Positions 398 to 53,962 of a stretch of DNA of 57,293 bases are shown piece after piece. The stretch's first letter is position 1; the number at the start of each line of letters is the position of its first letter. Position numbers and translations under genes: made by a program. This DNA comes from Patescibacteria group bacterium (lineage in GTDB: Bacteria; Patescibacteriota; Kazan-3B-28; UBA10110). Below the pieces are notes generated by a model that was not told where the DNA came from, searched no databases, and saw only the letters and a list, made by a program, of their open reading frames with translations. The stretch covers positions 1 to 57,293 of the forward strand of contig JAZDKW010000002.1 of assembly GCA_043802665.1 (NCBI GenBank). The letters are read 5' to 3'.

Positions 398-1168
398 GTG
401 ATCTTCATCATGAACTCATTATTTGTAGTGGCGGAAGCTATCCGCCGGTTAGTAACCTTGGCAGGCGAAAATCTGGAGATGGTGCTTCGCTGTTTCCAGC
501 GGGTCATCGACGATCCGGTCTATCGCCGTCAGGTTTGGCTGGCCATGACCGGCAAGCTGATTGTGAACGAGATGTCCAAGGACGAATGGATCGAGCGAGA
601 AACCAATGCCATGATCCAGCTCGGCCTGATGGATGCTGTTGTCGAAGAAAATGATGCTCTGCGCATCAAACAGATGGCCACCAAAGGTCAGTTCGGAATT
701 AATCACTACTTTATCCCGTCTGGCCTCACCCGTTCTCGACTTCTCGAACTTGCTGCCAAAGTCGGCATCAAGCTCAACTCCTCTCCGAATTGCGATGGCG
801 ACGAGATTCCCACCGAGGCAGGTATGCTCGAATGCGATTTGAGCACCATTATGCAGTCCACCGACAGTGCCCACCGGCCCTTCAACCTGGATTACAACGG
901 TCATCTGGCCTGGGCCAAGGAGCAAGGTGGAAGCGACCTGACCTCTGCTGAAGAGATGCTGTATCTCCTGATCCGGCATTCCATGGCATTCGGCCGCATC
1001 CTCTTTATGGGAGGATGGATCCGCTGTCGCAATCGTCGCGGTTCCGGCTTCCGGTTGCTTGTCAGCTTCGATGCCGGCGATGGTCTGCGCATCTCCTACG
1101 GCTTCGTTGGCTATTCCAGCTGGGGTTGGGGTGCCGTTCCCTGGAAGTTTACTCCCCTGGGAGCTTGA
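398..1168 (+). CDS. DGR target protein with C-terminal variable region; paralogue of 53354-53962
   Basis: 256-aa ORF. The start is uncertain: GTG 398 overlaps the stop of a 6-codon uORF (381-401) as GTGA, and ATG 410 is the alternative. The last 39 codons are the VR. It shares HYFIPSGL, LECDLSxIM, LxWAKxQGG, LTSAEE, YLLIR and WIRCRN blocks with 53354-53962. Confidence 0.85.
   Translation: MIFIMNSLFVVAEAIRRLVTLAGENLEMVLRCFQRVIDDPVYRRQVWLAMTGKLIVNEMSKDEWIERETNAMIQLGLMDAVVEENDALRIKQMATKGQFGINHYFIPSGLTRSRLLELAAKVGIKLNSSPNCDGDEIPTEAGMLECDLSTIMQSTDSAHRPFNLDYNGHLAWAKEQGGSDLTSAEEMLYLLIRHSMAFGRILFMGGWIRCRNRRGSGFRLLVSFDAGDGLRISYGFVGYSSWGWGAVPWKFTPLGA
1032..1149 (+). repeat. DGR variable region (VR)
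   Basis: 118 nt aligns without gaps to 1461-1578 (VR = TR minus 429). There are 23 mismatches, and 21 are at TR adenines. The 3' 22 nt (GGGGTGCCGTTCCCTGGAAGTT) are identical in both. Confidence 0.9.
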
Positions 1169-1201
1169 GCCCTTTTTCCTCTTTGATCTTTTGCCTTTTT
1201 T

Positions 1202-1230
1202 AGAGCCCGTCTCCGTTGGAGACGGGCTCT
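1202..1230 (+). promoter_or_regulatory. GC-rich hairpin downstream of the VR (candidate DGR target-recognition hairpin and/or terminator)
   Basis: AGAGCCCGTCTCC-GTT-GGAGACGGGCTCT, with a stem of about 12 bp, lies 53 nt after the VR end. There is no strong T-run after it. Confidence 0.55.
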
Positions 1231-1460
1231 TGCTGTATAATGGCTTAGAAATGGTAGTGAGGCTGAATGATCCAATCATTCAGTCCATCGTTTCCTCTCT
1301 TCTGGACAGCCAGAGCTGATGGTAAGGGATTAAGTTATCGTCAGGAGAGCTAACCAGCGGAGAGAACTTCTTGCTTCTTTCTAAGTCGTGCTATTTGCAC
1401 AAATAAAATACAGCCAACAGACATTTTCTGTGGCAGTGGGATGGATAAGAAGGAAGCTAT

Positions 1461-1578
1461 ATCGTCGCGGTTCCAGCAACTGGTTGAATGTCAACTTCAA
1501 TGCCGACAATGGTCTGAACGTCAACTACGACAACGATGGCAATTCCAACTGGAATTGGGGTGCCGTTCCCTGGAAGTT
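1461..1578 (+). repeat. DGR template repeat (TR)
   Basis: Non-coding copy of the VR, rich in AAY codons. In the VR frame it reads SSNWLNVNFNADNGLNVNYDNDGNSNWNWGAVPWKF. The surrounding 87-aa ORF (1388-1651) has no independent support. Confidence 0.9.
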
Positions 1579-1585
1579 CTCTCGG

Positions 1586-1924
1586 CTAGTTTTTTGTCGA
1601 TCGGACCCAACCTCCCAGCATTTTTCCTATTTCGTGCAATTCAAACTCTAATTTGATGTAGCGCTTGTCACTTAAACTGTTGGTGTCAGATGCCAGCCGA
1701 ATTAATAGCTTAATGACTTCGAGCTTACCGTGTGCCAATCCGAGATAATGATATTTCTTGATTGTATCTGAAGTTTGACTGGCTATAATGATGTTCTCGA
1801 TTAAATCTAGAGTGCTGGTTTGTATAATCTGGCCTAAGCTGTATCGTTCAATTTTAGGGAATTTTAACAAGCAATCATGCAAATTATGGTAGAAGTCATA
1901 CAATCGCTGAACGATTGGGATCAA
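1586..1924 (-). CDS. avd: Avd-like accessory variability determinant (four-helix-bundle, 23S rRNA IVS-protein family)
   Basis: 112 aa with family-typical FPKIERYSLGQIIQTSTLDLIENI and LGLAHGKLEVIKLLIRLA...EIGKMLGGWV segments. It starts at TTG and lies on the opposite strand to the TR and RT. Confidence 0.8.
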   Translation of the reverse strand: MIPIVQRLYDFYHNLHDCLLKFPKIERYSLGQIIQTSTLDLIENIIIASQTSDTIKKYHYLGLAHGKLEVIKLLIRLASDTNSLSDKRYIKLEFELHEIGKMLGGWVRSTKN

Positions 1925-2979
1925 CTCAAAATTTCGTTGGGGGGGGGGGTCTTAAAAGAAGAGTTTTTGATCATGTTAGTTTTAGTGAAGTAATATCTCT
2001 GGAAAATCTGTTCTTGGCTTGGCAGGAGTTTAGGAAAGGCAAACGGAGTAAGTTAGATGTTATGACATTTGAATATACTCTGGAAGACAACATCTTTCAA
2101 CTACATCACGATTTAGTCACGGGTGCTTACCGGCATGGGAATTATCAACAGTTTAAAATTACTGATCCAAAAGTAAGGTTGATTAGCAAATCAGGCATCC
2201 GCGATCGCCTGCTCCACCACGCAATTTATCGGGTGCTCTATCCGTGTTTCGACAAAACTTTTATCTATGATAGTTATTCTTGCCGAAACCGCAAAGGCAC
2301 TCATAAATCTTTTATTCAGCTACAGAAATTTGTCAGAAAGATAAGTAAAAATTATACTCAACCCTGTTTTGCTCTAAAGTCGGATATCCGTAAATTCTTT
2401 GACAGCATTGACCATAAGATATTGATGGATTTATTAAAAGAGCGAATCAATGACGAGCAGTTGTTAGATTTGCTTCAGAATATTATTAACAGTTTTGAAC
2501 ACTCACCCAGTAGAGGTATACCATTAGGGAATCTCACCTCGCAACTGTTTGCTAATGTCTATTTAGATCCTTTGGATAAGTTTGCGAAACATTATTTAAA
2601 AGCTAAACATTATCTCCGTTATGCCGATGATTTTATGTTCCTAAGTTCAGATCGAAATGAGTTAATAGGGTATTTGTTAGAGGTTAATCAATTTATCAAA
2701 ACTCAGCTCAAACTTAACATCCATCCTAATAAGATACATCTGAGGAAGTTTAACTGGGGGATTGATTATGTCGGTTATGTGGCCTTACCGCACTACTCAA
2801 TTCCCAGACGGAAAACAGCCCAAAGGATATTTAAGAAAATCAGACAGCTCTTGAAGAAAGGTGAGTTAGATAAATTAGCTAAAGCCATACCCTCATACCT
2901 TGGCTATCTTGGCCACGCCAATGCCTATAAACTTCAGAATGATTTGCTAAAAAGTTGTAGGGTAGGTAAGATTCCTTAA
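1915..2979 (+). CDS. DGR-type reverse transcriptase
   Basis: 354 aa with GIPLGNLTSQLFANVYL (the DGR hallmark [ILV]GxxxSQ) and RYADDFMF (YxDD). The only in-frame start is TTG 1915. An 11-G run at 1939-1949 lies in codons 9-12. Confidence 0.9.
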   Translation: MGSTQNFVGGGGLKRRVFDHVSFSEVISLENLFLAWQEFRKGKRSKLDVMTFEYTLEDNIFQLHHDLVTGAYRHGNYQQFKITDPKVRLISKSGIRDRLLHHAIYRVLYPCFDKTFIYDSYSCRNRKGTHKSFIQLQKFVRKISKNYTQPCFALKSDIRKFFDSIDHKILMDLLKERINDEQLLDLLQNIINSFEHSPSRGIPLGNLTSQLFANVYLDPLDKFAKHYLKAKHYLRYADDFMFLSSDRNELIGYLLEVNQFIKTQLKLNIHPNKIHLRKFNWGIDYVGYVALPHYSIPRRKTAQRIFKKIRQLLKKGELDKLAKAIPSYLGYLGHANAYKLQNDLLKSCRVGKIP

Positions 2980-3926
2980 CCTTTTACTTTTTTGTATTTG
3001 TTGTGAAAATTACGGTGTACTTCTTTGAGTTGGGGGTTGGTGATGTGGGTGTAGATTTGGGTAGTGGTGATAGAAGAATGTCCTAACATCTCTTGAACGG
3101 AGCGGATGTCAGCCCCATTAATTAGCAAGTCAGTTGCAAATGAATGCCTGAGGGTGTGCGGAGTGACTTTTTTTATGAGCCCAGCTAAAGTCGCATATTT
3201 TTGGACGATGCGCTGGATACTACGGGGGGTCAAGGATTCATGCGGGATAGCACCGGCATGAGAAATAAAAGCAGATTCAGCATTATCGGTTCGGCGTTTA
3301 AAATAGGTTTGCACCAATTGAGCGGCTTCCTTAGACAAAAATACTATCCGAGGTTTATCGCCTTTTCCCCGAACCATAAATTCTCCACGCTTAAGATCAA
3401 TGTGTTTGCGCTTTAGGTTAGTCAATTCGGAAACGCGGAGACCAGTAGAGAACAACACGGTTAAAATAGTCAGGTCGCGAAGTGACTCCAATTTATCATC
3501 TCGGGGGACGGCGGCGAAAATACTGCTGAGCTCATCTAACCCAAGAAAATCAATATGTCTTTCGGTAGTTTTGCCCAATTCAATTTTTTCGGCGGGCAAA
3601 GATTTAATATCTTGTTTAGCTAAGAACTTCAAAAAAGCGCGCAAGGCGATAATGTGGTAATTTTGGGTAACGGCTTTAAGTGGGTGGCCTTGATGGTCTT
3701 TGGTCCGGTTAAGATGTAGGCGATATTTACGGATTAAGGGGAGGGTGATGCGAGAAGGAGAAAGCTCGTGAGATTCTTCCGAAGCCGCAAATTCGGCAAA
3801 TCGACTAAGATAATGAGCGTAATTCTCGATAGTTTTAGGACTCCGATTTTTTTCAATCTCTAAGTGATCAAGAAAATCATCGATAAGTACGCTAAGGCTG
3901 CTCATAGTTATATTGTGCGACATCAA
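2976..3926 (-). CDS. Tyrosine site-specific recombinase, XerC/XerD family
   Basis: 316 aa with an N-terminal SAM-like domain and the C-terminal motif HTLRHSFATDLL...LGHSSITTTQIYTH. The 3' end overlaps the RT 3' end by 4 nt (convergent). Confidence 0.85.
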   Translation of the reverse strand: MMSHNITMSSLSVLIDDFLDHLEIEKNRSPKTIENYAHYLSRFAEFAASEESHELSPSRITLPLIRKYRLHLNRTKDHQGHPLKAVTQNYHIIALRAFLKFLAKQDIKSLPAEKIELGKTTERHIDFLGLDELSSIFAAVPRDDKLESLRDLTILTVLFSTGLRVSELTNLKRKHIDLKRGEFMVRGKGDKPRIVFLSKEAAQLVQTYFKRRTDNAESAFISHAGAIPHESLTPRSIQRIVQKYATLAGLIKKVTPHTLRHSFATDLLINGADIRSVQEMLGHSSITTTQIYTHITNPQLKEVHRNFHNKYKKVKG

Positions 3927-3980
3927 TTCGAGAGAAGCAACCCACCTCCAAATTTATGTATATAAAATGGCAAATTCTAA

Positions 3981-4010
3981 TAGTACACACGGTATATACC
4001 GTGTGTACTA
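3981..4010. promoter_or_regulatory. Perfect 30-bp palindrome (11-8-11), candidate dif-like Xer site or operator/terminator
   Basis: TAGTACACACG-GTATATAC-CGTGTGTACTA lies 55 nt upstream of the xer start codon. Confidence 0.4.
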
Positions 4011-4123
4011 TGGACGCTGATATTTTTTATAAATTTTTATCAGAAATTAGGGCAGTGGGATAGTGCCGAGATTAGATCAGAGCTCTATACTACAGATAAA
4101 TTTTCTGGAAAAAAAATCTTAGA

Positions 4124-6613: not shown

Positions 6614-8017
6614 ATGGTTATTAGAAAGAAGGATCTAAAAACACGAGTGCGGGTAAGTAAGAGTTTGGCGATGGCCAAAGAGCCGGAAGTAACCGCTGTC
6701 GATACGGTGCATATTCTAAAGAAGCGTAGCCGGGTTGGCCGATTTGTAGGTATCGGTTTTGTAATAGCGGTTCTATTGTTATTGGGTTGGTTTGCTACTA
6801 AATTAGCTCTCAGTGGTTGGCAAGTATCCAAAGAATCTCTCTTAAAAGATTTATTTACTTTTGGTACCACGAGCTTGGTGGGAGAAACGCAAGGTCGGGT
6901 GAATATAGTGCTGTTGGGTATACCGGGTGAAGGAGATGATGGGCCAAATCTCACAGACACATTAATGGTTGCCAGTCTTTCAACTCAGCCAGATAAAAAT
7001 AGTTTTCTATTTTCTATCCCGCGGGATCTATACGTCCGGGTGCCGGGTTATGGCAACACTAAGATCAATGCGGTTTATGAAATTGGAAATAATCAGGAAA
7101 CGGGCGGAGGAGGGAAACTGACTTCTCAGATTGCAGGAGAAGTCTTAGGTTTGGATATTCCTTATTACGTAAAATTGGATTTTTCGGGGTTCAGCAAATT
7201 GATTGATGAGTTAGGTGGCGTAACTATAACGGTGGACAAAGATTTGTATGACGATAAGTACCCCAATAAGACTAAGGGTTATGAAATAGTTGATATCAAA
7301 GCCGGGACATACACTATGGATGGAGCTACAGCGTTAAAATATGCTCGTTCCAGGCAATCTACTTCTGATTTTGACCGAGCCTTGCGTCAGCAGAAGGTTT
7401 TGATCGCAGCTAAGGATAAAGCGATGCAGTTGAATTGGCTAAGTAATCCAGCCAAAGTTATTGCAACTATGGATATCCTGGCCGATCATTTCACAACTAA
7501 TATGAAATTGAGTGAGTTGAAACGGATGATTACTTTATTCAAGGATTGGGATGTCAATAAACTTGTGCATAAAGTCTTTGATGACTCGCCAGCCGGATTA
7601 CTCTATGGTACTCGGGTGGATGAGATTTATGTATTGCGTCCAGTAGGTGATGATCTAAAGGTGATCAGCGACTATGTCGCCAAAACTATTTCGAGTGAAA
7701 CTCCGGCAGAAGAGTTAAACCAACCGGTTAATGCAGAGCCACTAAAAGTAGAAGTTTTGAATGGCACTAATATCACTGGTTTGGCTCGGAAGATTGCTAC
7801 CCAGTTGGAAAAAGATAGTTACATAATAGTCAGTGTGGGCAATAATGCGGTTAAAGGATTCACGCGTACGATAGTCTACGATCTTAGTGGAGGTCAAAGA
7901 ATTTGGGAAGTACGCAAATTGGCAGAGAGTCTAAAAGCAGATATTGGGACGGATAAGATAGAAACTACCACGGGAGCATTGGCCAGAATAGTGTTGGGGA
8001 GCGAGGCGTCTAATTAG
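6614..8017 (+). CDS. LytR-CpsA-Psr (LCP) family protein with LytR_C-like C-terminal domain
   Basis: NIVLLGIPGEGDDGPNLTDTLMVASL...IPRDLYV...NTKINAVY. ATG 6614 is preceded by AAGAGG. The ORF track extends upstream to 6551. Confidence 0.8.
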   Translation: MVIRKKDLKTRVRVSKSLAMAKEPEVTAVDTVHILKKRSRVGRFVGIGFVIAVLLLLGWFATKLALSGWQVSKESLLKDLFTFGTTSLVGETQGRVNIVLLGIPGEGDDGPNLTDTLMVASLSTQPDKNSFLFSIPRDLYVRVPGYGNTKINAVYEIGNNQETGGGGKLTSQIAGEVLGLDIPYYVKLDFSGFSKLIDELGGVTITVDKDLYDDKYPNKTKGYEIVDIKAGTYTMDGATALKYARSRQSTSDFDRALRQQKVLIAAKDKAMQLNWLSNPAKVIATMDILADHFTTNMKLSELKRMITLFKDWDVNKLVHKVFDDSPAGLLYGTRVDEIYVLRPVGDDLKVISDYVAKTISSETPAEELNQPVNAEPLKVEVLNGTNITGLARKIATQLEKDSYIIVSVGNNAVKGFTRTIVYDLSGGQRIWEVRKLAESLKADIGTDKIETTTGALARIVLGSEASN

Positions 8018-53353: not shown

Positions 53354-53962
53354 ATGATTGTTGCAGGTTCTATTATGAACTCGGGGGTATGGATCAAACG
53401 CGAGACAGCGGCCATGGAGAAGCTTGGCATCATCGGACAGGAAACGGCAATCGCCAAGGCCGCTAATCTACCCAATGGTGTGAACCACTGCTTTATCCCG
53501 TCCGGTCTCGACCGCAAGAGGCTGATCAAACTCGCAGGTGAGAGTGGTGTTAAAGTTAAATTCAGTTCGTCGCCAAACCGCGATGGCGAGGGAATCTTGA
53601 CCGAAGCCGGCATACTTGAGTGCGACCTTTCGGCCATCATGACCCTTAGGGGCCCTGATCGCTGGCCGTTTAATTTGAATGCCGACGAGCACCTGCTTTG
53701 GGCTAAAGATCAGGGTGGAGATGGCTTGACTTCAGCCGAGGAAGCCATCTATCTCCTCATCAGGGCCTACATGGCATTCGGGAAAATCCCCTTTATGGAT
53801 AAATGGATCCGATGCCGGAACTACTGCGGTTCTGGTTCTGGCTCTCAGTTGCTGGTCGGGTTCTGGGCTGGTTCTGGTCTGCGCGTTCGCTACGGCCAAG
53901 GTGACCACCATTCTTCGGACTATGGTGCCGTTGCTCGGAAGTTTACGCCCCTTGTTGTTTGA
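53354..53962 (+). CDS. Paralogue of the DGR target protein with VR-like C-terminus
   Basis: 202 aa, alignable to 398-1168 over the C-terminal 160 aa. The C-terminal WIRCRNYCGSGSGSQLLVGFWAGSGLRVRYGQGDHHSSDYGAVARKF corresponds to the VR/TR segment. SD AGAGG precedes the ATG. Confidence 0.8.
   Translation: MIVAGSIMNSGVWIKRETAAMEKLGIIGQETAIAKAANLPNGVNHCFIPSGLDRKRLIKLAGESGVKVKFSSSPNRDGEGILTEAGILECDLSAIMTLRGPDRWPFNLNADEHLLWAKDQGGDGLTSAEEAIYLLIRAYMAFGKIPFMDKWIRCRNYCGSGSGSQLLVGFWAGSGLRVRYGQGDHHSSDYGAVARKFTPLVV

Follow-up and report, generated by a model that had tools for sequence, protein, structure and literature searches.

The locus at 398-2979 raises the question of whether a protein gene, a partial copy of its 3′ end, an Avd-like open reading frame (ORF) and a reverse transcriptase (RT) gene together form a DGR and, if so, of which type and in what state of activity. 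The window, i.e., the whole 57,293-nt stretch of DNA that was analysed, carries ftsA/ftsZ and tRNAs and is therefore considered to be cellular chromosome. The locus is very probably a chromosomal DGR of the standard Patescibacteria/CPR type, with a target gene that contains the variable repeat (VR), a template repeat (TR), an avd gene on the opposite strand and an RT gene. It is a complete but ordinary example of the DGRs that are common in CPR bacteria, and every defining component is present. The one unusual feature of this otherwise ordinary element is a run of G residues at the junction of avd and RT.

Template and variable repeats

The target gene (398..1168, + strand) is an ORF that encodes 256 aa from a GTG start, with its C-terminal ~40 aa diversified. 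The VR (1032..1149, + strand) is at the 3′ end of this gene and represents codons 212-251 of the 256. It aligns with the TR (1461..1578, + strand) without gaps over 118 nt at an offset of 429, as a preliminary description of this DNA had stated. A per-base tally reproduces the 23 mismatches counted there, 21 of which are at TR adenines, and the two exceptions are those given originally: T1481 of the TR opposite C1052 of the VR, and G1520 opposite A1091. The same TR/VR pair (D1) was recovered independently by a repeat search. Substitutions from TR to VR at the 21 adenines comprise ten A to G, eight A to T and three A to C, and only 2 of the 88 non-A positions of the TR differ in the VR. With 30 A in the 118 nt of the TR, the hypergeometric probability that at least 21 of 23 mismatches fall on A is 3.2e-14.

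The translated TR reads YRRGSSNWLNVNFNADNGLNVNYDNDGNSNWNWGAVPWKF, a string equal to the one reported before, and the codon reading bears out that TR adenines are mostly in AAY codons. Eighteen TR codons, mostly AAY, have an A at position 1 or 2, and 16 of these differ in the present VR. The TR had also been termed non-coding. This is not strictly so, as an 87-codon ORF (1388-1651) crosses it; the ORF is a relic of the origin of the TR.

An ORF that runs through the TR, together with the second, diverged target paralogue that is present in the window, might be taken to mean that the TR is an ordinary duplicated gene fragment, i.e., a pseudogene copy of the target 3′ end that has undergone normal mutation, with the RT gene adjacent only incidentally. 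However 21 of the 23 mismatches concern a single base (P = 3e-14), and the same arrangement with A-only mismatches is found in 18 independent loci. In addition, the mismatches of the true paralogue involve all four bases, and 29 of the 53 are at positions other than A. The duplicated-fragment explanation is effectively refuted, and we assign it next to no probability.

A search of both strands for additional VRs, in which the TR-A positions were ignored, revealed none besides the known VR and a weak match at 53826. The latter is the 3′ end of the diverged paralogue, whose mismatches to the TR are spread over all four bases. It was rejected as a current target, since it is no closer inside the VR (63%) than outside of it (64%) and differs at 29 of the 88 non-A TR sites.

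An IMH-like 3′ boundary (1126..1160, + strand) is seen in the alignment at the end of the VR. It starts with the G+C-rich GGGGTGCCGTTCCC and consists of 24 nt identical to the TR, followed by a diverging segment. Thus the identical 3′ end previously pointed out is present, but its length is 24 nt (1126-1149 = 1555-1578) and not 22 nt. The homology was also said to end abruptly. The sequences do diverge after the identical stretch, yet matches persist at 6 of the 11 positions that follow, as is the behaviour of IMH and IMH*. Two TR adenines inside the IMH-like stretch, 1574-1575, are unchanged in the VR. Read from the alignment, the VR has a putative IMH at its 3′ end, and the TR ends in an IMH* that is not identical to it.

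Reverse transcriptase, Avd and the sequences that surround the template repeat

The RT gene (1915..2979, + strand) encodes 354 aa when translated from a TTG at 1915, and the protein matches Pfam RVT_1 (6e-23) and the PHROG RT family (9e-104). The motifs LGNLTSQ and YADD that first drew attention to it are both present. Its best solved relative is the RT of the Bordetella phage DGR (8ub7_A, E = 3e-45, residues 24-340), versus E = 7.5e-20 for the best group II intron RT, and this agrees with the initial assignment to the DGR class rather than to retrons or group II introns. A G-x-LTSQLFANVY motif is common to the window RT and the Bordetella DGR RT. As judged by the closest solved structure and by this motif, the RT belongs to the DGR clade.

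The top-scoring NCBIfam models are nevertheless those of a group II RT/maturase (137.7 bits), Drt3a and a retron RT. This might be expected if the repeat had nothing to do with the RT and the enzyme were that of a retron, a group II intron or a defence-associated DRT. These matches are far below the curated cut-offs of 300, 200 and 235 bits, respectively, and the NCBIfam models matched include no DGR RT model. By contrast, among solved structures the Bordetella DGR RT leads by 25 orders of magnitude. A maturase/X or endonuclease domain is absent from the protein, the window contains no group II or retron RNA of Rfam, and all relatives have the RT in tight linkage with Avd and a TR. An RT of another class is thus considered extremely improbable.

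The avd gene (1586..1924, − strand) encodes 112 aa from a TTG start, is antisense to the TR and RT, and is situated 7 nt from the TR end. Profile matches confirm the Avd-like ORF that had been placed next to the repeat pair, with the correction that it is on the minus strand (1924 to 1586). The protein scores 81.3 bits with the NCBIfam equivalog DivGenRetAVD, for which the cut-off is 80, and also matches Pfam bAvd (8.1e-20) and the PHROG family “Avd protein of DGR” (9.8e-20). The avd and RT starts overlap by 10 nt in a head-to-head orientation. No second RT or avd gene was detected in the window. A XerD-like integrase gene at 2976-3926 was considered as part of the element and rejected, since it is not conserved beside the RT in relatives.

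In genome loci with related RTs, avd is antisense to and head-to-head with the RT gene in 18 of 21. In 18 related loci the TR abuts the avd 3′ end, the VR is 340-520 nt upstream and mismatches are almost only at A sites. An architecture termed “B3”, TR-(avd)-RT, represents 90% of the DGRs in the CPR set of Wu et al. 2018 (PMC5758913), and the layout found here, TR 1461-1578 (+), avd 1924 to 1586 (−) and RT 1915-2979 (+), equals B3. The CPR DGRs of that set and those of clade 2 in Roux et al. (PMC8144416) have the same order of components, the reverse-strand avd and the target upstream on the TR strand. They are likewise chromosomal, are found in Patescibacteria MAGs, and have the same kind of target, without a recognisable domain, signal peptide or membrane segment. 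Nothing essential is different in the window element; its target family, with 20 known members, is unnamed. The hosts of all named target homologues and of nearly all RT-related loci are Patescibacteria, Kazan, Paceibacterota or “Saccharibacteria”-labelled MAGs. The window DGR adds one well-resolved case to a class already catalogued in the hundreds.

Several non-coding elements are found between the VR and avd. A perfect 13-bp G+C-rich inverted repeat with a 3-nt loop (I7, 1202..1230) was detected by the repeat search 53 nt past the VR end. A G+C-rich inverted repeat downstream of the IMH is found in about a third of DGRs and is not universal. Of 18 related loci, 9 have a comparable hairpin at a distance of 42-61 nt past the VR (10 of 19 when the window is included), mostly with a T-run thereafter, and these equivalents look like terminators. 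The window hairpin has no T-run. It is either the DGR hairpin/cruciform element or the terminator of the target gene.

The TR transcript may have its promoter at TGTATAAT (1234..1241, + strand), a candidate extended -10 element read directly from the DNA. L007, the closest relative, and L001 have the identical sequence, and TATAAT-like sequences come directly after the hairpin in other relatives. The candidate was not called by a promoter consensus scan because there is no -35 match. Further downstream, before the TR and after a small hairpin, is the motif ATAAAATACAGCC (1403..1415, + strand), which is conserved among diverged relatives. This motif is near-identical in the window and in L001, L007, L010, L013, L014, L020 and L024, and is similar in other loci. 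No Rfam family matches the TR region.

A long-range inverted repeat (I2) that brackets the TR was also found by the repeat search. Its upstream arm (1352..1370, + strand) is complementary at 17 of 19 positions to the downstream arm (1573..1591, + strand), which is formed by the IMH*-like 3′ end of the TR and the next 13 nt. In a duplex test that compared self with cross-locus energies, the pairing covaries across loci (permutation p = 0.00075); the signal came from the restricted test with its cross-locus control, and an unrestricted RNAduplex analysis of long flanks gave z near 0. The repeat matches an element class reported by Handa et al. (bioRxiv 10.1101/2023.10.23.563531).

The prototype DGR, that of Bordetella phage BPP-1 (mtd-avd-TR-brt), has in common with the window element an adenine-specific flow from TR to VR, a C-terminal VR, an Avd partner, an IMH-like identical 3′ end, possibly the downstream G+C-rich inverted repeat, and a homologous RT (E = 3e-45) with the shared G-x-LTSQLFANVY. 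Both also appear to have a duplex between RNA upstream of the TR and RNA at or beyond the TR 3′ end. However BPP-1 is a phage element whose target is a tail-fibre tip, whereas the window element is cellular and its target is a small soluble protein. The hairpin is directly after the IMH in BPP-1 and 53 nt after the VR in the window, and the window RT ORF begins with a poly-G run. A further difference is that avd in the window is antisense and between TR and RT, so that the RNA downstream of the TR is antisense-avd sequence, as opposed to a dedicated spacer in BPP-1.

A possible mode of action can be outlined from these features. A transcript would start after the target-gene hairpin, at ~1250, and would carry a structured leader of ~210 nt, the TR, antisense-avd sequence and the RT ORF. 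The leader at 1352-1370 is predicted to pair with the TR 3′ boundary at 1573-1591, in a manner that resembles the upstream/downstream duplex described for Bordetella DGR RNA. RT and Avd would copy the TR into cDNA with misincorporation opposite adenines, and this cDNA would replace the VR at 1032-1149, the 24-nt identical IMH-like end setting the 3′ boundary. The 18 TR codons with an A at position 1 or 2 would in this way diversify an otherwise conserved C-terminal domain of a small soluble protein.

The target protein

Searches with the target aa sequence produced no Pfam, NCBIfam or PHROG matches, and a PDB profile search was also empty; matches to Diablo/SMAC at E ~0.2 were dismissed as noise. 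The homologues detected number only 20, and each comes from a CPR MAG or a metagenome. By sequence homology, the target is a member of a small, unnamed family that is found only in Patescibacteria. An alignment of the family displays a conserved scaffold and a hypervariable C-terminus. When column diversity was assayed across the 21 sequences of the target family, columns whose TR codon has an A at position 1 or 2 had 8.3 different residues versus 3.9 elsewhere (p = 5.6e-5).

The target had been described as lacking an obvious signal peptide, and this holds for its relatives: no qualifying hydrophobic segment is present in any of 20 family members according to a simple Kyte-Doolittle and uncharged-run heuristic, used in place of SignalP or TMHMM. 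The accompanying proposal that the diversified protein may be cytoplasmic is consistent with the hydropathy of the whole family. It is not a new lead, since the lack of membrane or signal segments in CPR DGR targets is an observation already in print (Roux et al. 2021, PMC8144416). This small family of soluble CPR targets bears on what non-membrane DGR targets do.

In structure modeling with AF2, the target gave a pLDDT of 83. The best Foldseek match of the model is the Bd2740 CTD (prob 0.99, E = 0.02, TM 0.58 on the target length), which is a variant C-type lectin fold described as matching Mtd in trimer mode. Weaker fold matches are to BDCA2, intimin, herpesvirus UL45 and a DUF1566 protein. 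The model suggests that the C-terminal domain probably has a C-type-lectin-like fold, with fold-search E-values that are weak. Solved DGR variable proteins are absent from the top 50 Foldseek matches, and Pfam and PDB profile searches gave no sequence-level match to any lectin or FGE-type domain. The C-type-lectin DGR proteins Mtd and TvpA resemble the target in that variable residues are in the last ~40 aa and alternate on predicted β-strands; unlike proteins of the Mtd/TvpA type, the target displays no lectin match at the sequence level, and its Foldseek E is 0.02 at best.

Activity of the element and the poly-G run at the avd/RT junction

Mutagenic retrohoming in the window had been proposed to be recent, but this is more than the sequence shows, and the TR has changed since the VR was last rewritten. 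In L007, whose cassette is 92% identical, the TR base at the place of T1481 is a C, as it is in the window VR. T1481 is therefore a TR mutation that postdates the last VR rewrite. The VR bears one non-A change, A1091. No population variant of this VR came to light: the target is alone in its 90% cluster, and the two members of the relative's cluster are identical.

Diversification is seen in a sister element present in three near-identical genomes (L046, L047 and L050). The three TRs are identical and the VRs differ at 28 sites, 26 of which are at TR adenines; the remaining 4.5 kb are ~99.9% identical. DGRs of the clade to which the window element belongs are active in nature.

The state of the window RT gene is relevant here. 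The RT ORF has a G11 homopolymer (1939..1949) at its 5′ end; the start codon of avd, on the opposite strand, is 14 nt away. The only in-frame start of the RT is the TTG at 1915; the frame of an ATG further upstream, at 1877, is off by one base across the run. The position at which translation of the RT starts, as far as it can be read from the DNA, is uncertain. The alignment with the Bordetella RT begins at residue 24 of the window RT, every conserved block is kept and the ORF is uninterrupted from the TTG.

A silenced or decaying DGR should be considered, i.e., one that was active once, in which the link between the RT and its start codon was lost at the G-run, and TR and VR are each drifting on their own. 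The RT of L007 starts at an ATG whose window counterpart, on the far side of the G11 run, is out of frame, with only the TTG left, and one TR-side and one VR-side non-A substitution have occurred since the last homing; both would fit such a loss. However the RT ORF is intact from TTG 1915 with all of the Bordetella-conserved blocks, there is no damage to Avd, the IMH or the hairpin, and differences between TR and VR affect just 2 of 88 non-A positions. Moreover, about half of the related loci have no in-frame start, and these include members of the lineage whose VRs are still diversifying. Because the no-start state is shared in this way, the frame state of the RT looks reversible or irrelevant rather than degenerative, and silencing of the window element is unlikely.

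The G-run recurs as G6-G13 in 61 of 76 related loci (~80%), with RT identities down to ~45%, and its length need not be a multiple of three. Near-identical genomes differ by no other indel. In two lineages of near-identical genomes, length variants differ in whether a conserved upstream ATG is in frame, and the run often separates the RT from any in-frame start codon. In L022 and L025 it is located upstream of the RT start codon.

From this pattern we tentatively suggest, as a possibility we rate as less likely than not, that the G-run is a conserved, slippage-prone switch that sets whether the DGR RT is made. Gain or loss of one G, in DNA or during transcription, would shift the RT core into or out of the frame of the start codon. 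Diversification could then be turned on and off reversibly, and the cell could lock in a useful target variant. If so, the largest group of cellular DGRs would have a simple and testable means of on/off control within the element itself. In the literature that could be searched, neither a description of this run nor a connection of DGRs with such tracts was found.

Poly-G/C contingency tracts are associated with phase variation in Neisseria, Campylobacter and Bifidobacterium pilus genes (PMC4965091, PMC9187656). Unlike these tracts, the DGR G-run is known from comparisons between genomes and not from switching within a population, it is also part of the 5′ leader/promoter region of the divergent avd gene, and it precedes the RT start codon in some relatives, as in the two loci mentioned above. 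Like these tracts, the G11 run is a G/C homopolymer of at least 7 nt near the 5′ end of an ORF, the DGR run varies by single bases between near-identical genomes, and whether an upstream start codon is in frame depends on its length.

Repeats, reverse transcriptase and gene order

The diversity-generating retroelement (DGR) called at 398-2979 in the preliminary description is correctly identified as complete, and is of a known kind, i.e., the standard type of the candidate phyla radiation (CPR). The variable repeat (VR, 1032-1149), at the 3′ end of the target gene (398-1168, plus strand), aligns without gaps over 118 nt with the template repeat (TR, 1461-1578). By a per-base tally 23 positions differ, and at 21 of these the TR base is an adenine (A to G, 10; A to T, 8; A to C, 3). 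The TR contains 30 A's; the probability that at least 21 of 23 mismatches would then lie on A by chance is 3e-14, and the adenine specificity first described is thus upheld. The two exceptions are T1481/C1052 and G1520/A1091. The same TR/VR pair was recovered independently by a repeat finder. The identical 3′ end had been put at 22 nt and is in fact 24 nt long; beyond it 6 of 11 positions match, a decay as expected for an IMH (identical 3′ boundary of the VR) and its non-identical TR counterpart, IMH*. The TR had also been described as a non-coding copy, but an 87-codon open reading frame passes through it, a relic of the TR's origin.

The reverse transcriptase (RT, 1915-2979, plus strand) matches Pfam RVT_1. 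Among solved structures the closest is that of the Bordetella phage DGR RT, 8ub7_A (E = 3e-45, residues 24-340 aligned), with the best group II intron RT behind it (E = 7.5e-20), and scores against the NCBIfam group II, retron and DRT models are all far under their cut-offs. Alignment with 8ub7_A shows the G-x-LTSQLFANVY block and the YADD motif to be common to both proteins, in agreement with the DGR hallmark reported earlier. The Avd-like reading frame beside the repeats passes the NCBIfam equivalog model for DGR Avd (81.3 bits, cut-off 80) and matches Pfam bAvd and the PHROG "Avd protein of DGR", with the correction that it lies on the minus strand (1924 to 1586).

In its order (target/VR, TR, avd, RT) and in its antisense avd, the window element has the B3 architecture of Wu et al. 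2018, which formed 90% of their CPR set and was almost absent elsewhere (PMC5758913). Genome loci with related RTs (n = 21) were fetched from Kazan, Paceibacterota, "Saccharibacteria"-labelled and other Patescibacteria MAGs, and avd is antisense and head-to-head with the RT in 18 of them. In 18 related loci the TR adjoins the avd 3′ end, the VR is located on the same strand 340-520 nt upstream, and the TR/VR mismatches are almost all at TR adenines. The window cassette is 92% identical to that of its nearest relative, L007. Compared with the window TR, the L007 TR (about 7052-7178) lacks 30 nt internally, and the L007 VR is full length; thus TR and VR lengths are out of step in L007. In two assemblies, L003 (6001-7104) and L004 (same coordinates), the target has a TR-like, AAY-rich 3′ end (...FNADAGLNVNYDNHSNRNWHYGAVAR) and runs directly into the antisense avd without a separate TR; either VR/TR recombination has collapsed the cassette or the repeat was collapsed in assembly.

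Target protein and its diversification

Searches with the target of Pfam, NCBIfam and PHROG, and of the PDB by sequence, gave no match. Among 5.8 billion proteins searched there were only 20 homologues, all from metagenomes or Patescibacteria-labelled MAGs. A confident AlphaFold2 model made with the family alignment (pLDDT 83, pTM 0.81) predicts a helical N-terminal part and, at the C-terminus, an alpha/beta domain with the VR in its last five strands. Of the PDB structures matched by Foldseek, the C-terminal domain of Bdellovibrio Bd2740 ranks first (probability 0.99, TM 0.58 on target length), albeit with a weak E-value of 0.02; this domain, as its authors describe it, has a variant C-type lectin fold, with a trimer mode matched only by Mtd, the variable protein of the Bordetella phage DGR (PMC10769870). 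Lectin-like structures also make up the weaker matches (BDCA2, intimin, herpesvirus UL45 and a DUF1566 protein). A C-type lectin fold, for which structure prediction was first suggested as a test, is rated as likely from these predictions. By a simple hydropathy test, no member of the target family has a signal-peptide-like or membrane-spanning segment, which extends the earlier observation on the target to its whole family. Roux et al. 2021 reported the same for CPR DGR targets and left open whether these are truly non-membrane.

Diversification is evident at the family level. Where a column is templated by a TR codon having A as its first or second base, the 21 sequences of the target family average 8.3 different residues, as against 3.9 in other VR columns (p = 5.6e-5). 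Thus the family as a whole has been diversified at templated sites. Direct evidence of activity comes from a sister element, present as L046, L047 and L050 in three samples and about 99.4-99.5% identical over 4.5 kb. The TRs of the three are identical, and their differences lie almost all within the 81-nt VR (in L047, VR 1614-1695, TR about 2004-2085), where 26 of 28 variable sites are at TR adenines, a natural snapshot of diversification. No near-identical genome or cluster variant of the window locus itself was found. At the site of T1481 the L007 TR has C, as does the window VR; the mutation of the TR thus postdates the last rewriting of the VR. The TRs of L007 and L001 (a related locus) both keep G1520, so that A1091 is a VR-side change. 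The retrohoming had been described as recent, which these two changes leave unestablished; drift between window TR and VR amounts to only 2 of 88 non-A sites.

A 202-aa paralogue of the target (53354-53962, plus strand; 53% identical, without the N-terminal ~58 aa) has a VR-like degenerate 3′ end (53826-53943) and its own terminator hairpin, with no TR, avd or RT nearby. Homing from the TR would homogenise non-A sites, yet 29 of 88 of these differ from the TR, and DNA identity to the target is no higher inside the VR (63%) than outside (64%). The paralogue is therefore ruled out as a current target; its IMH-like stretch has three mismatches. Two other family members, L006 and L009, have no RT within 3-6 kb of flank, and the L005 contig stops 187 nt past its target and gives no information on RT linkage.

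Hairpin, TR-bracketing repeat and poly-G run

A perfect 13-bp, G+C-rich hairpin (1202-1230) begins 53 nt after the VR. Comparable hairpins are found 42-61 nt past the VR in 9 of 18 related loci, most of them with a T-run and, after it, a TATAAT-like box. From this comparison, the window hairpin would be at least as likely a terminator of the target gene as a DGR cruciform. TGTATAAT at 1234-1241 is a plausible candidate for an extended -10 promoter of the TR transcript. The TR is bracketed by an inverted repeat (1352-1370 and 1573-1591) in which 17 of 19 positions pair. The TR 3′-end sequence differs in other loci, and the upstream partner changes along with it: GAGAGAACUUC/GAAGUUCUCUC in the window, AGACACUCC/GGAGUGU in L014 and L020, and GAUUUCU/AGAAAUC in L021. 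Upstream regions pair better with their own TR end than with those of other loci (permutation p = 0.00075). The repeat matches the upstream/downstream duplex inferred by Handa et al. for most Avd-containing DGRs, those of CPR included. In the leader, a small hairpin is followed by a conserved motif, ATAAAATACAGCC (1403-1415).

The element itself is standard; the one feature that could repay follow-up is a poly-G run at the avd/RT junction. The RT reading frame starts at TTG 1915, followed by G11 at 1939-1949. The L007 tract is one base longer (C7G7) and has an upstream ATG in frame; the equivalent ATG of the window, at 1877, is out of frame with the RT. A run of 6-13 G's, most commonly G9-G11, occupies the same position in 61 of 76 related loci examinable there. 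Besides the window, such a run occurs at this site in L001, L003, L010-L018, L020-L027, L030-L034, L038-L042, L045-L056, L058-L068, L070, L072, L073, L078, L081 and L083. Run lengths are not multiples of three, GGG makes up only 18% of glycine codons in the window genome, and the RT of L022 and L025 begins downstream of the run, at an ATG preceded by an SD. These features suggest that selection acts on the nucleotide sequence rather than on a Gly-Gly-Gly peptide.

The run is flanked by the conserved RT N-terminus and, on the opposite strand at a distance of 5-15 nt, by the avd start codon. The preferred reading, suggested by sequence comparison, is that the run may switch or throttle RT expression through slippage; alternatives are that it functions in the leader or promoter of avd, or as an RNA element. 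No in-frame ATG, GTG or TTG lies upstream of the run in 18 of 38 unique tract-bearing loci, and the run is the sole indel among near-identical genomes. L027 and L048 match L051 at every position but for a single 1-nt gap over 5963 nt (G11 vs G12), and the only gap between L046 and L050 is of 1 nt in 4480 nt (G9 vs G8); the L052 run is G7. In both lineages run length alters the frame of a conserved upstream ATG, which is in frame for G12 and G8. Uncertain assembly of homopolymers could account in part for the length differences, but not for conservation of the run. No paper linking DGRs with a poly-G tract was found in the searchable literature, which excluded the key CPR DGR paper.

Chromosomal setting

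The window contains ftsA, ftsZ and three tRNAs, and thus represents a cellular chromosome. A gene for a XerC/XerD-type tyrosine recombinase (2976-3926, minus strand) converges on the RT gene, with a 4-nt overlap at the RT stop codon. It is not conserved beside the RT in relatives, and therefore probably has no connection with the DGR. A perfect 32-nt palindrome (3980-4011, ATAGTACACACGGTAT/ATACCGTGTGTACTAT) lies immediately upstream of the recombinase gene, and an imperfect inverted repeat of 40 nt (4-43 and 89-128, 78% complementary) is found at the very start of the contig. The G+C content of the target gene (~50%) is markedly higher than that of the RT gene (37%, 2001-3000) and than the window average of 45%.
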